From assembly GCA_951406725.2 (NCBI GenBank), contig OX597818.1:4650001-4714000 (forward strand): a stretch of DNA of 64,000 nt, in the 5' to 3' direction. This DNA is from Octopus vulgaris. Taxonomy: Eukaryota. This document shows positions 44,306-48,440 of the stretch, one piece after another. Each line of letters begins with the position of its first letter. Position 1 is the stretch's first letter. Under the pieces are notes generated by a model. That model was not told the DNA's origin, searched no databases, and saw only the letters and a program-made list of their open reading frames with translations. Both the position numbers and the translations under genes were made by a program.

Positions 44306-45483
44306 AATTCCCATCATTATCAATGACTTCCTTCCATCTACTCATCAGATTTTTAATTCCATTGGTGAAAAACTATTTTGGTTTTGATGAGAAAGAAGAG
44401 AGGTCATTTTTGACCTCTTTGGGACTTTTGAGTACTAATCCATCGAAATGATGCAGTAAACTTCGAAACAAATGGAAGGAGTGAGGTTCAAGAAATAAGA
44501 CAGGTAAGGAATTTTTTCCCAGCCAAATTCTTTGATTTTGTCTGATGTAATCTTTGCCCTGTGAGGCCTTACATTATCATGATGAAACGCCATTCCCTTA
44601 CGATTCACCAAAACAGGCCTTTTTTCTTTCAAAGGAGCAATCTAAACACTCTAATTTTTGGCAATAGGTGTGAGCAATAATTGTTGCATTAGTTGGTAGC
44701 AGCTCAAAGTGGATGACTCCAATGCAATCCTACCAAACAGAAAGAAGAATCTTTTTTGCATGGGGATCCTTTTTGGATTGAGATTTAGACTATTCTCCAC
44801 AACTAAGTCATTGCCAACATCACTTAATATTTTCATTAAAAAATCCAGTCACTAACCTGTCCAAAAATGGTGAGATGCATTCATGAGAGTGAAGAGGTGT
44901 GCAGATGTTCACTTGTGATTTTCAGTTGGTTTCTGTCAAATAATGTGGAATCCATTTTCTGAGTTTGGGCAAGCTGGTGAAGATGGTGGTGAACAGTTGA
45001 AGGCTTGATTTGAGCTTGCTTGCCAATTCTTCAACTGACACAGCATTATTCTTCTAAAGCTCTGACAAAAGAAGCTCATCATCAAATCCAACAGGGCATC
45101 CTATTTATGGCCTCTCTCTTAGGCTGAAATCACTACTTTTGAACTTTGTAAACCATCTTCTGCAACTTCTTTCATTTAAGCACTCTTCCCCATAAACAGA
45201 ATGAATGTTTTGGGTTGTTTCTGCTGCACTGTTTCCCTTTTTGAACTCATAAAGCATTATGTGCCTTAAATGCTCCTTCAATACGTCCAACATTGAGGGG
45301 TTAATATTAGTAGTAATTTATTCAGTCAGATTAATTAATAATGAAAAGAAATTATATTAAGTTTAAAGGGTTCCAAATCCATTTGAGTATCAATCAATAC
45401 CATTTGATATTTTAGAATACTGTAAAATGTGATAGAAATTACATATATGATATTTTGGACATTATTTATGAGGTGATCTGTTA
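44306..45483 (-). mobile_element. Decayed mariner transposon
   Basis: HTH HLRHIMLYEFKKGNSAAETTQNI...CRRWFTKFKSSDFSL (45105-45293) and catalytic relic FHHDNVRPH...GWEKIPY (44435-44632). TIR-like sequence at ~45455-45483. Confidence 0.88.
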
Positions 45484-45627
45484 CTTGAAAATTTTGAATT
45501 TATTTTTGATTTATGTCAAAATTAGTGGTCATGCAGTGCATGTATTGCATACCTCGAATGCATGCAACTGTTACATGTACATAGGTTTGGTAGAACAAGC
45601 AAAAGAAACAGAAGTTAGTATATAGAG

Positions 45628-45717
45628 AATACTAAACGAGTTCCCTATGGATACCGTATTTATTACAAGCCACGAGTTGTAATAAATATGGTATCCATAG
45701 GGAATGAGTTTGGTATT
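45628..45717. repeat. Terminal hairpin of the Crypton (41-bp arms, 8-nt loop)
   Basis: 45628-45668 versus reverse complement of 45677-45717: 36 of 41 identical, two of the mismatches G.T-compatible. Confidence 0.93.
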
Positions 45718-46051
45718 TTATTTATTACACACGAATAAACGACCATATTTTATTAATTTAATAATTAAATCCTTCACATCATGTTGAAGCGCGCATGAAT
45801 ACAGCTTGATTTCACGTCAGTGACGTCACAATGTGTAACTGTAAAAGATGTCATGCCGCAGGAAGATAGTCCGACTTTATAGCGCTAAGTTTTCAGGTGA
45901 AATGACTGATAACTGATGACTATTTAACATTTTGTTAACATTCAAGTTCACGTTCAAGAAATACATAACACAGATTGAATCTTCAATAACTTTAATAATA
46001 CTCAAACATATTTTCGAGTAGCAATGTCAGTCAGCAATAGTCCAGGAAAAC

Positions 46052-47620
46052 TTAACAGTCCTCATTATCTGTGAGACGAGGTTGCTTTGCATCTGAACCA
46101 AAGAAGTTCACATTGATTGTTCCCCCAAATATTGGAGCCGAGAAAATGGAGTGCAATGAACCAAAGCAAGTGACAGCGTTCCGAGGTTGACTCGACGTAA
46201 CGTTGACAGTGGAGGGGAGTTCACTTGCACTCGCTGCTGCTGTGTGTGACGGAGGTAGAAGCGAACCAGGCTGGTCATTGTTGCTACTAAGGATGTTACT
46301 GATGGCACGATGACAATCCATGGAAATATTGCTGTAACTATTGATGCTTTGCACATTACGATGTCCAGATATCTGCATGATTTCAGTTGGAGGAATGTTC
46401 TGGTCAGCGAGCTTCTGCACAAGGTATTTGCGTGCTGAATGGTTCGTGAATCTTTGATTGTCCAAACCAGCTGATTTAGCCATCCTTTTCATAATTGTAC
46501 CTAGTTTGTTGACACCGACCGGTTGACGTTTAAACCAGGGATGAGAATGGGAGGCATCTTTGCAGTTGGTGGCCAAATAAAATGGTGAATCCGGCGATGA
46601 ATAATCTGATGGTCTCAGATCAGCAAAACGCTTGTACAGGTTAACTGGACAACGCTCATCATTCGTCGCCCATGCTTTTGGGTAGATGTTACGTGCATGG
46701 TCAAGATTATCATCTTGACAAGTTTTGGACTGTCGCTCCCTAAACTGAAGGAATTCCTTGCCTTCATTGTCAACATGCAAAGAAACATCGCCCCATCGCA
46801 TGTCGTTGTGAGGTTTGACACTCCGGATACCAAAGTGAACGGTGTTGTTCCACCATAGCGTGTTGAGGATGGATTCAGGTGTGTTCGTACCGAGCTGGTC
46901 ACATTCCCATAGCTTGTTGATATCATCGTCGGAGAGAGATTCCGTGCATCGAGGTAGGTTTCCCATTCCTTCACTTTTCAACAGCTTTTGCTTCGTTTTT
47001 AGTATGTCATGTAGTTTCACGAATGTCCCGTCCGAGAATAGTGACGTCGAGTAGTGTTTTGACTTCAGATATCTTTCAATACTGGATAACATTCCCATCA
47101 AAGATGAAGGTTCATAGTTGCTACCGTCTGGCTTTCGTAACGAAATAAAGAAAGTACAGAGAATGTCACAAAGTTCGCTTTTGTCGATAGATTCAATTGG
47201 ATGCATGTCGCCATTTGTCGCCATGAAAGCAAACAATCGTTTAACATCATAGTTTGTTTTTCGAAGAGTGTTTTTATTTTGATTACCTTGAACGAATTTA
47301 TCTATTCCAGAATGATCATACCTCGGTTGAAATTCAAGATCATTATGGCTATCATCAAAGAAATCGTCATGAAGAAGATCATTGTACACCTCATCAGGGA
47401 TGTTAAATGCAGGGTTCGATGACAATCCACTCGTCGATGACACTGTTTCAGGTACCTTTGTTAACCTGTATCCAGCAACATGTCGAACTTGGCCAGTATT
47501 TATCTTCACATTGAACATTCTATATGTTCCAAGAGGTTGAACAATGGATAATACTCTTCCCCCATCTTTACCATCAATCTTAACAAAATCATTCACCTTG
47601 ATATCGATAACATTAGCCAT
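46052..47620 (-). CDS. Tyrosine recombinase, Crypton / DUF3504 (KIAA1958/ZMYM-related) family, 522 aa
   Basis: Uninterrupted ORF from the likely ATG at 47620. Motifs RKPDGSNYEPSSL, HFGIR (R 46823-25), RQSKT (K 46724-26), RCPVNLYK, PVGVNKL, FTNHSAR (H 46439-41, R 46430-32), ISGH (H 46361-63), SINSY (Y 46334-36). Confidence 0.92.
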   Translation of the reverse strand: MANVIDIKVNDFVKIDGKDGGRVLSIVQPLGTYRMFNVKINTGQVRHVAGYRLTKVPETVSSTSGLSSNPAFNIPDEVYNDLLHDDFFDDSHNDLEFQPRYDHSGIDKFVQGNQNKNTLRKTNYDVKRLFAFMATNGDMHPIESIDKSELCDILCTFFISLRKPDGSNYEPSSLMGMLSSIERYLKSKHYSTSLFSDGTFVKLHDILKTKQKLLKSEGMGNLPRCTESLSDDDINKLWECDQLGTNTPESILNTLWWNNTVHFGIRSVKPHNDMRWGDVSLHVDNEGKEFLQFRERQSKTCQDDNLDHARNIYPKAWATNDERCPVNLYKRFADLRPSDYSSPDSPFYLATNCKDASHSHPWFKRQPVGVNKLGTIMKRMAKSAGLDNQRFTNHSARKYLVQKLADQNIPPTEIMQISGHRNVQSINSYSNISMDCHRAISNILSSNNDQPGSLLPPSHTAAASASELPSTVNVTSSQPRNAVTCFGSLHSIFSAPIFGGTINVNFFGSDAKQPRLTDNEDC

Positions 47621-47638
47621 CTTGTTGATAGATCTACC

Positions 47639-47752
47639 TGCACTGCAACAGTATCGACGAGCAGACGATATATGTTTGCACTGCAACAGTATCGACGAGC
47701 AGACGATATATGTTTGCACTGCAACAGTATCGACGAGCAGACGATATATGTT
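47639..47752. repeat. Perfect 3 x 38-bp tandem repeat upstream of the recombinase ATG
   Basis: TGCACTGCAACAGTATCGACGAGCAGACGATATATGTT at 47639, 47677 and 47715. Confidence 0.97.
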
Positions 47753-48195
47753 GTGATTTTTTTGGCAACAAAAAATTGAATTACGACCAGAAATGTTTAT
47801 ATTTTATGTGTATATGACTTTAAGTGATATCTGGTATAAAAAAGATAGTATGTTTGTTTAAATATATGGCTACATTCTACCGGCTCGTGAAAGTTTAGTT
47901 GTAACTTATGAATGACAAAAGTAGTGTCGTCACCGTGACCTCGGGTCATCACCATGGATTGACCAATCAGAAGCAGCGCTCGCAGTATCTGACATATGTT
48001 AGATACCAAAAATATCTCAAAGTGTTCTCACTCACATGTGTGTAATAAATGAGTATATATACTTTTTTTATTTAATTTAATTGGTGGAAATTACAATAAC
48101 TGACTCCAATTTTGGTAGCTCGGTTCTTTATATAGAGTGAAATACATTTTGAAATATTTGATAAAAAACAAAATTGGAGGGTCATGTGAAAAATA

Positions 48196-48440
48196 CATCA
48201 TCATCATTACTTAATGTCTGTTTTCCATGCTGGCATGGGTTGAATGATTTGACAGGAGCTGACCAGCTGGGGAGCTGCACCAGGCACCAAATGTCTGTTT
48301 TGGCATGATTTCTATGGCTGAATGCTCTTCCTAATGCTAACCACTTTACAGAGTGTACTGGGTGCTTATCATGTGGCACTGGTATGGGTGCCATTTACGT
48401 GACACCAACATGGATGGCTTTTTATGTGGCACTTGTATGA
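48196..48440 (-). mobile_element. RTE 3' UTR fragment
   Basis: (CAT)n then 'ttttccatgctggcatgggtt...cttcctaatgctaaccact'. Confidence 0.78.

Follow-up and report, generated by a model that had tools for sequence, protein, structure and literature searches.

A CryptonA-type element of octopus with a terminal hairpin and an internal mirror of its predicted circle junction, a candidate folded single-strand substrate for its own recombinase

Introduction

How do animal Cryptons move? So far the mechanism is a model borrowed from bacteria. Passages of Kojima and Jurka (2011, PMC3212892) report animal Cryptons without terminal repeats, a part of the supplement gives the termini of two displayed CryptonA rows as 'n.d.', and the strings 'hairpin' and 'palindrom' have 0 occurrences in that paper. 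Glomhoppers are described in sections of a 2026 paper (PMC13465315) as having no detectable terminal repeats. Eulor5/6 and salmon Cryptons have similar termini according to parts of PMC5753468, where hairpins go unmentioned.

A locus in Octopus vulgaris raises the question in a concrete form. Within a 64-kb window (the window being the whole stretch of DNA that was analysed, 64,000 nucleotides), a tyrosine recombinase gene is flanked on one side by a long hairpin. An earlier note on this DNA read the hairpin as one that lengthens only when the ends of a mobile element are joined, which would suit a folded single-strand or cruciform recombination substrate. Is the hairpin such a substrate, and where exactly are the ends?

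Results

An intact CryptonA-type element in animal DNA

Judged by its domain content, the locus is a CryptonA-type DNA transposon with a DUF3504 tyrosine recombinase as its only enzyme (Table 1). The ORF matches DUF3504 (PF12012, E 1.6e-26), Phage_integrase (PF00589, E 6.6e-9) and also QRICH1. All six catalytic positions (R266, K299, H394, R397, H420, Y429) are intact, and the R-K-H-R-H-Y residues are invariant or nearly so across 47 aligned sequences; since they are kept, this is not a domesticated gene of the ZMYM/KCTD1 type. The predicted structure (mean pLDDT 78) has QRICH1 and then Cre as its closest folds, and the IntI structure 2a3v ranks only 29th, below both. Residues 10-55 (window 47455-47620) are predicted with high confidence to fold into a small all-beta domain at the N-terminus, which is missing from most relatives' matches and could be an extra DNA- or chromatin-binding module.

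The recombinase is 95% identical to a protein labelled Octopus sinensis; the remaining 64 protein matches are 22-86% identical, the named ones coming from molluscs and one hemichordate. P0063, a predicted Octopus vulgaris protein of 608 aa, contains an 86%-identical recombinase piece covering 19% of the query, next to Pfam domains that have no relation to it; this may be a fused gene model or a capture. A domain search of the element revealed no RT/RNase H or Gag ORF. Long terminal repeats are absent as well, the longest perfect end-to-end inverted match being 13 nt, and no second copy of either end exists within the 64-kb window. In viral contigs, a motif scan hit 119 stretches, which we took as chance matches; none of 49 candidates there was a relative of the recombinase.

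The window is animal DNA with abundant LINE, SINE and mariner remnants. A decayed mariner with a Mos1-type HTH lies at 44435-45293 on the minus strand, just left of the Crypton. Contigs from four public runs, bearing four organism labels, cover the gene at ~98% identity. Contig depth, which is not a copy number, rises far above that of the gene at either end in all four runs, and four internal-deletion joints in these contigs retain both ends. The element is repetitive, with shorter non-autonomous derivatives keeping both ends. An end-to-end joint was not found among the contigs of the four runs; contigs drop rare forms, so this is neutral evidence. A neighbouring high-copy repeat starts at 48196 and obscures the reading of the octopus boundary from contigs. 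The left-flank contig stops at 45648 in two runs, a weak hint of other copies without the whole AGTATATA (the 8-bp repeat discussed below) that we do not count as evidence. Upstream of the ORF, a joint between 47638 and 47715 appears in contigs of three of the four runs, and the 38-bp triplication in the window (Table 1) may be either a recent local expansion or an assembly artefact.

The hairpin end of the octopus copy

The elements of the layout proposed earlier are all present. The direct repeat AGTATATA was found at both 45617 and 48052. The motif (T)ATTTATTACA occurs four times, directly at 45657-45667 and 45719-45729 and reversed at 45678-45688 and 48041-48050; positions 45720-45732 and 48038-48050 are exact reverse complements, and the 13-mer has no further copy in the 64 kb. 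The hairpin with its 41-nt arms (45628-45668 and 45677-45717) begins 3 nt after the left direct repeat, as had been stated. Read on the plus strand, the arms form 36 Watson-Crick, 3 G.T and 2 G.A pairs around an 8-nt loop, with the tandem G.A located at 45638-45639/45706-45707 in the context C-GA-G/T-GA-G. AT microhomology is found at 45622-45623 and 48049-48050.

The left end folds at -31.1 kcal/mol on the plus strand (z = -12; 0 of 200 shuffles equally good) and reaches z = -10.5 on the minus strand, and the right end folds no better than shuffles (z = -0.9). Rfam matched only generic miRNA hairpins, far under gathering scores, and no terminator-like site was seen. Since the mRNA does not carry the stable motifs, which are those of the opposite strand, a role at the RNA level is disfavoured.

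At the opposite end, a CCAAT-like box is located at 47963-47970. By eye, such boxes are present at the 5' ends of many loci; in relatives they are often repeated and flanked by TTTCAC(A/T)(A/T)GTGAAA palindromes, 80-250 nt inside the 5' end. They likely represent an internal promoter.

Table 1. Coordinates of the element and its features in the window
Feature	Position	Strand	Remark
CryptonA-type element, 2427 bp	45622..48048	-	boundaries predicted from the family rule, gene-strand TTAT ... CTAT
Single ORF, 522 aa, DUF3504 / phage-integrase-family tyrosine recombinase	46052..47620	-	domain and residue matches
Left AGTATATA copy	45617..45624	+	by the family rule, 5 host bases and first 3 element bases
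Terminal ATAG (gene-strand CTAT) and 2-nt AG bulge	45622..45627	+	predicted crossover immediately left of 45622
41-bp-arm hairpin	45628..45717	+	loop 45669-45676; inner copy of the junction 11-mer at 45657-45667 / 45678-45688
Internal mirror of predicted circle junction	45718..45732	+	45718-45721 opposite terminal ATAG; 45722-45732 complements the far end
Three identical 38-bp tandem copies upstream of ORF	47639..47752		one copy in public-run contigs
Far-end (gene 5') motif, begins TTAT	48038..48048	-	would pair with 45722-45732 only after end joining
Right AGTATATA copy	48052..48059	+	by the family rule, host DNA, 3 nt beyond the element end

Relatives share one end register

Relatives were collected by an alignment-based scan and comprise the best 80 of 419 confirmed metagenome loci together with 2 loci from genome bins. 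In this set the recombinases are 32-50% identical to that of the window, and at 80% DNA identity the loci fall into 33 families besides the window. The tree, built from the window and these loci, places L121 as the nearest relative with ends among the best 80 of 419 (51% identity, support 0.89). L200 and L201, which are animal-type Crypton genes, come from contigs assigned to two bacterial genome bins and most likely represent host DNA that was binned with the bacteria.

Fifty-one loci had at least 600 nt beyond the gene match. A long hairpin ~250-900 nt downstream was detected in 25 of these 51, representing 12 of 22 families (from the best 80 of 419), while among control flanks 49 of 53 scored 43 or less versus 66 for the window copy. 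The other 26 loci are without an intact hairpin end, many being visibly cut by insertions or contig ends; by eye, the structure begins in L132, L133, L134, L136, L146, L195 and L197 and then runs into an insertion, a deletion or the contig end.

The register was counted on 23 ends from 13 families, window included. L169, L196 and L183 (unrelated or nested hairpins), L126 (contig ends), L124 and L144 (internal site deleted) and L156 (unclear) were dropped, and the registers of L125, L129 and L139 were placed by hand. On the gene strand the order is an internal site ending in ATAA (18 of 23), four bases, the two arms, a bulge and CTAT. The terminal CTAT is present in 20 of 23 ends; the bulge before it is 0 nt in 10, CT in 12 and AT in 1, and the host DNA after it starts with A or T in 22 and continues with T in 18. 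All 23 placed ends share a fixed register: CTAT has 4 nt opposite it, and the bulge measures 0 or 2 nt. The window copy conforms to it without deviation and has the geometry of L121 and L182.

At the far end, most pairs of copies from families F0, F1, F2, F3, F4, F5 and F8 lose their alignment no more than about 4 nt from a TTAT; some pairs, including that of F10, share a TA run further out. The family of L173 and L175 has its own 5' inverted repeat starting from the TTAT end, both copies of the element lying within TA runs. The inner motif copy is not retained as such in most relatives. The layout of hairpin plus mirror is a family trait found in many distant relatives.

The junction and the target rule

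The crossover had been drawn through AGTATATA, with the crossover sequence bulged out of the stem. None of the 9 other complete elements has an 8-bp repeat, and crossover through it was rejected as a rule for the family. Across the crossover, all 10 complete elements have 0-3 nt of in-register homology and no in-register target-site duplication, the repeat of the window being out of register. An 8-bp string common to the neighbourhoods of both ends is found in the window only, the other complete elements having 3-7 nt. The empty site reads T^A in 8 of the 10 elements and AT^AT in 5. On this comparison, the relatives end in CTAT and start with TTAT (gene strand) and insert at a T^A step.

Since AGTATATA occurs 11 times over both strands of the 64-kb window and is not a family feature, the 8-bp repeat is weak evidence. 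It is probably incidental, a TA-rich host target that overlaps the first three bases of the element. The reconstructed empty site contains a short tandem repeat. By the family rule, we place the octopus element with good confidence at 45622-48048, with the junction ATAA^ATAG on the plus strand. Because relatives without the 8-bp repeat have CTAT/TTAT ends at T^A, the likely junction is a nearly continuous stem. End joining lengthens the stem under either junction, just as proposed earlier (fold energy -40.3 kcal/mol through the repeat and -42.7 kcal/mol by the family rule, versus -32.5 kcal/mol unjoined), but the family junction gives a single stem through the crossover with a 2-nt bulge, whereas the former one leaves an 8-10-nt bulge.

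The far end and the internal mirror co-vary

Among 19 elements with enough upstream DNA, the best match to the element's own internal site starts at the far-end TTAT in 10, and 9 of these matches have a shuffle p of at most 0.02; the window itself gives p = 0.086 on a 20-mer because its match extends only 11 nt inside the element. A matching far end was absent in the other 9.

When one element per family was taken, own-pair complementarity at positions 5-13 amounted to 58 of 63 cells versus a permutation mean of 36.9 (2 of 5040 permutations). The far ends entering this test were chosen by their best match to the internal site, and it is thus partly circular. Far-end alignment breaks independently confirm 4 of the 7 (L125, L137, L139 and L186) and not the window, L121 and L200. 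In 10 of 10 cases the own end folds better than every other family's end. The families compared have recombinases 41-57% identical, and their arm sequences have been replaced. The earlier note had named a lack of conservation or co-variation in related copies as a ground for refutation; this is not what the relatives show, and fixed-register complementarity does co-vary across families. Co-evolution of binding sites with the protein, or conversion between sites, could also explain the co-variation.

Mismatches and loops favour one strand

For mismatch counting the arms were aligned regardless of strand. GA/GA on the antisense strand accounts for 44 of 67 two-by-two loops, GA/GA on the gene strand for a single one. 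The 44, all in a pyrimidine-GA-purine context, come from 10 of 13 families. The GA/GA pair of the window is 10 bp up the arm, as in L121; it adjoins a G.T and was scored as a 3-nt loop. The GCGNAGC cap has a background expectation of ~0.005. Of 26 hairpins, 10 carry it on the antisense strand (from 6 families, with N = A, C or T) and 2, both with an inverted apex, on the gene strand; the other 14 have it on neither. The window copy has no GNA cap, and L180 and L182 have no G.A pair. The hairpins share ancestry, and the G.A counts are therefore not independent events. A general skew of G.T over A.C was rejected (20 single G.T versus 19 A.C), so that the G.T skew of the window is not general.

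Passages of PMC10085684 and PMC13037366 describe tandem sheared G.A in such a context and the GCGNAGC mini-hairpin as stable DNA structures. Both motifs speak for the antisense strand (the plus strand of the window) as the one that folds. The antisense junction folds better than the sense junction in 10 of 10 complete elements, partly owing to the G.A motifs themselves.

In L144, L166 and L182 (2-3 copies) the apex of the hairpin is inverted relative to sister copies, in a flip/flop manner, with the orientation of the lower stem unchanged, pointing to strand switching between the arms. In L147 and L166, G.A has been corrected to perfect pairs.

A second family of short elements was observed at L167:2743-3060, L125:2468-2574, L185, L169:1798-1912, L196:1551-1668 and L199:108-232. 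It has an AACAAT...ATTGTT hairpin with G.A pairs and a GNA-type apex on one strand. After the hairpin comes a 12-nt far-end mirror, which in L167 matches at 12 of 12 positions (~200 nt on). The plan is thus that of the Cryptons, except that a few crossover bases apparently have no partner, and no recombinase gene is linked to these elements. We take this family to resemble Eulor5/6. Some Eulor repeats were reportedly once described as hairpin-plus-tail shapes, and the hairpin alone may be in print. Downstream of the gene, two copies of one Crypton family, L169 and L196, have different short hairpin elements at an identical position, which suggests that related elements contain a favoured target.

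Discussion

A folded single strand and its alternatives

We lean, by a modest degree, towards the view that the joined ends of the antisense single strand fold into the recombination site, working like attC or CTXphi. This keeps the core of the earlier proposal, a folded single-strand substrate, for which co-variation and the one-strand mismatch and loop types speak; crossover through AGTATATA and the bulged-out crossover sequence find no support. The junction of a double-stranded circle has its own complement, and the mirror would be useless there, which makes a single-stranded stage likely. Homology of 0-3 nt together with the lack of duplication means that integration fits a one-strand exchange.

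The reaction might proceed as follows. The hairpin end would fold once the antisense strand is exposed, on the lagging strand or in a cruciform. The recombinase would then carry out a one-strand exchange at ATAA^ATAG between this end and the far end, and a single-stranded antisense circle would be set free by replication. In the circle, the far-end motif and the mirror would pair, so that a short core with some wobble pairs would again be flanked by two binding arms; the 0-2-nt bulge would stand in the way of a further exchange. A single exchange of one strand with a double-stranded target at T^A, often AT^AT, followed by replicative resolution, would insert the element with no target duplication. 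For the entire scheme, in which the recombinase of an animal CryptonA reads a sheared-G.A hairpin, copies out an antisense circle and integrates it by one strand exchange, our confidence falls a little short of even. For CryptonF, which belongs to another group, parts of PMC9977147 describe an active element that gains copies despite clean excisions; the gain speaks for the scheme, and such excisions fit an ordinary two-strand reaction.

The mirror could instead act as a splint, as in DIRS elements, aligning both ends of a linear single-stranded copy for ligation into a circle; the hairpin may also prime the second strand, and the recombinase would integrate an ordinary double-stranded circle. 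The mirror is indeed complementary to both extremities and located near the 3' end of the gene, like the DIRS-1 ICR; the folding strand is likewise antisense, and passages of PMC7192593 and PMC6681497 report that the cDNA of DIRS-1 is single-stranded and antisense and that the ICR is required. Mini-hairpins are found at single-strand priming origins according to parts of PMC13037366. The octopus element, however, has no reverse transcriptase and no long terminal repeats from which untranscribed ends could be rebuilt, and the CCAAT-like boxes seen by eye inside the 5' end imply that a transcript would likely miss that end. A splint would also favour perfect pairing, whereas the core opposite CTAT is wobbled or mismatched in most ends; its position 2 is G.T in 16 of 23, although these positions are homologous and so reflect few events. 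We regard such a splint as the main rival reading, yet rather unlikely. Also unlikely, in our view, is a classical two-strand route in which the ATTTATTACA-type motifs are extra recombinase or accessory sites, arranged as asymmetric sub-terminal inverted repeats, and the hairpin at most allows cruciform extrusion or has a regulatory role. The motif does occur four times in the octopus copy, co-evolution of binding sites would explain the co-variation, the predicted fold is Cre-like, and passages of PMC3212892 and PMC9977147 offer the Goodwin model and clean CryptonF excisions as precedents. Yet this route leaves unexplained the one-strand G.A/GNA pattern and the fixed 0/2-nt register, insertion sites have no 6-8-bp overlap homology, and most relatives have not kept the inner motif copy as such. 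Finally, the mirror might be a relic: an ancestral circle may have acquired it through inverted duplication or template switching, and only recurrent conversion would have preserved it since. Inverted apices and corrected mismatches (L144, L147, L166, L182) do show arm-to-arm copying, but the mirror stays in register at 41-57% protein identity despite replaced arm sequences, and conversion would erase G.A mismatches and not keep them; we consider a relic very improbable.

Relation to known systems

We found no description of the octopus layout in those portions of the literature that were covered, among them parts of PMC6681497, PMC9345347, PMC9977147 and PMC4455052; Repbase Reports, Dfam, Goodwin 2003, subscription reviews and bioRxiv supplements lie outside this coverage. 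With CryptonA as described in sections of PMC3212892 and PMC13465315, the octopus copy shares a single intact ORF for a DUF3504 tyrosine recombinase, the absence of LTRs and target duplication, the animal host, and shorter derivatives retaining both ends; it differs from those descriptions in the terminal hairpin, the junction mirror, the CTAT/TTAT ends and the T^A target.

Like integron attC, as presented in parts of PMC5027507 and PMC4792948, the site shows the sequence signature of a strand-biased imperfect hairpin at the crossover with conserved unpaired features, together with variable arms, a purine skew on the more stable strand and very short crossover homology. In contrast to attC, its core is ATAA^ATAG without RYYYAAC/GTTRRRY, its enzyme ranks closer to QRICH1 and Cre than to IntI by predicted fold, and it has symmetric tandem G.A loops where the cited passages give attC single extrahelical bases; the site would be complete only after end joining, and the element encodes its own enzyme. 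In CTXphi attP(+), which is described in PMC4792948 and cited in PMC9345347, two separate parts of one strand pair and mimic a double-stranded recombinase site, as is proposed here for the octopus junction, but CTXphi is a single-stranded phage using host XerCD and a fixed dif, unlike an element with its own recombinase and a loose T^A target.

The DIRS-1 ICR, according to parts of PMC7192593, is likewise an internal sequence near the 3' end that is complementary to both extremities, in an element with a tyrosine recombinase and an antisense strand. The octopus element lacks RT/RNase H, Gag and long inverted terminal repeats, and the mirror in its family is 15-28 nt long and continuous with a 40-70-bp hairpin, against 88 nt for the ICR. 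Bacterial tyrosine recombinase elements share the proposed one-strand copy-out as a circle; they differ in having four core genes and being site-specific, and 'stem' occurs 0 times in the main text of the paper on them. By analogy, then, the octopus element resembles attC/CTXphi or the DIRS ICR in its proposed working but belongs to neither family.

Meaning for Crypton biology

With the octopus locus, an intact enzyme and a cephalopod-type family become available, and the ends are given exactly, along with a rule for the target. Its intact ORF, ~98% identical to contigs of four public runs, is a practical source of enzyme, and the exact ends, the target rule and a folded substrate short enough for synthesis as a 130-nt oligonucleotide would make the movement of Cryptons and their gain of copies directly testable. 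If confirmed, this would be a structure-reading single-strand recombinase in eukaryotes, with a possible link to the DIRS ICR, and would hint at the former targets of the domesticated DUF3504 domains of ZMYM2-4, QRICH1, KCTD1 and KIAA1958. If the scheme is true, it would represent an independent eukaryotic invention of integron/CTXphi chemistry, for which the octopus-type copy would be an intact starting point.
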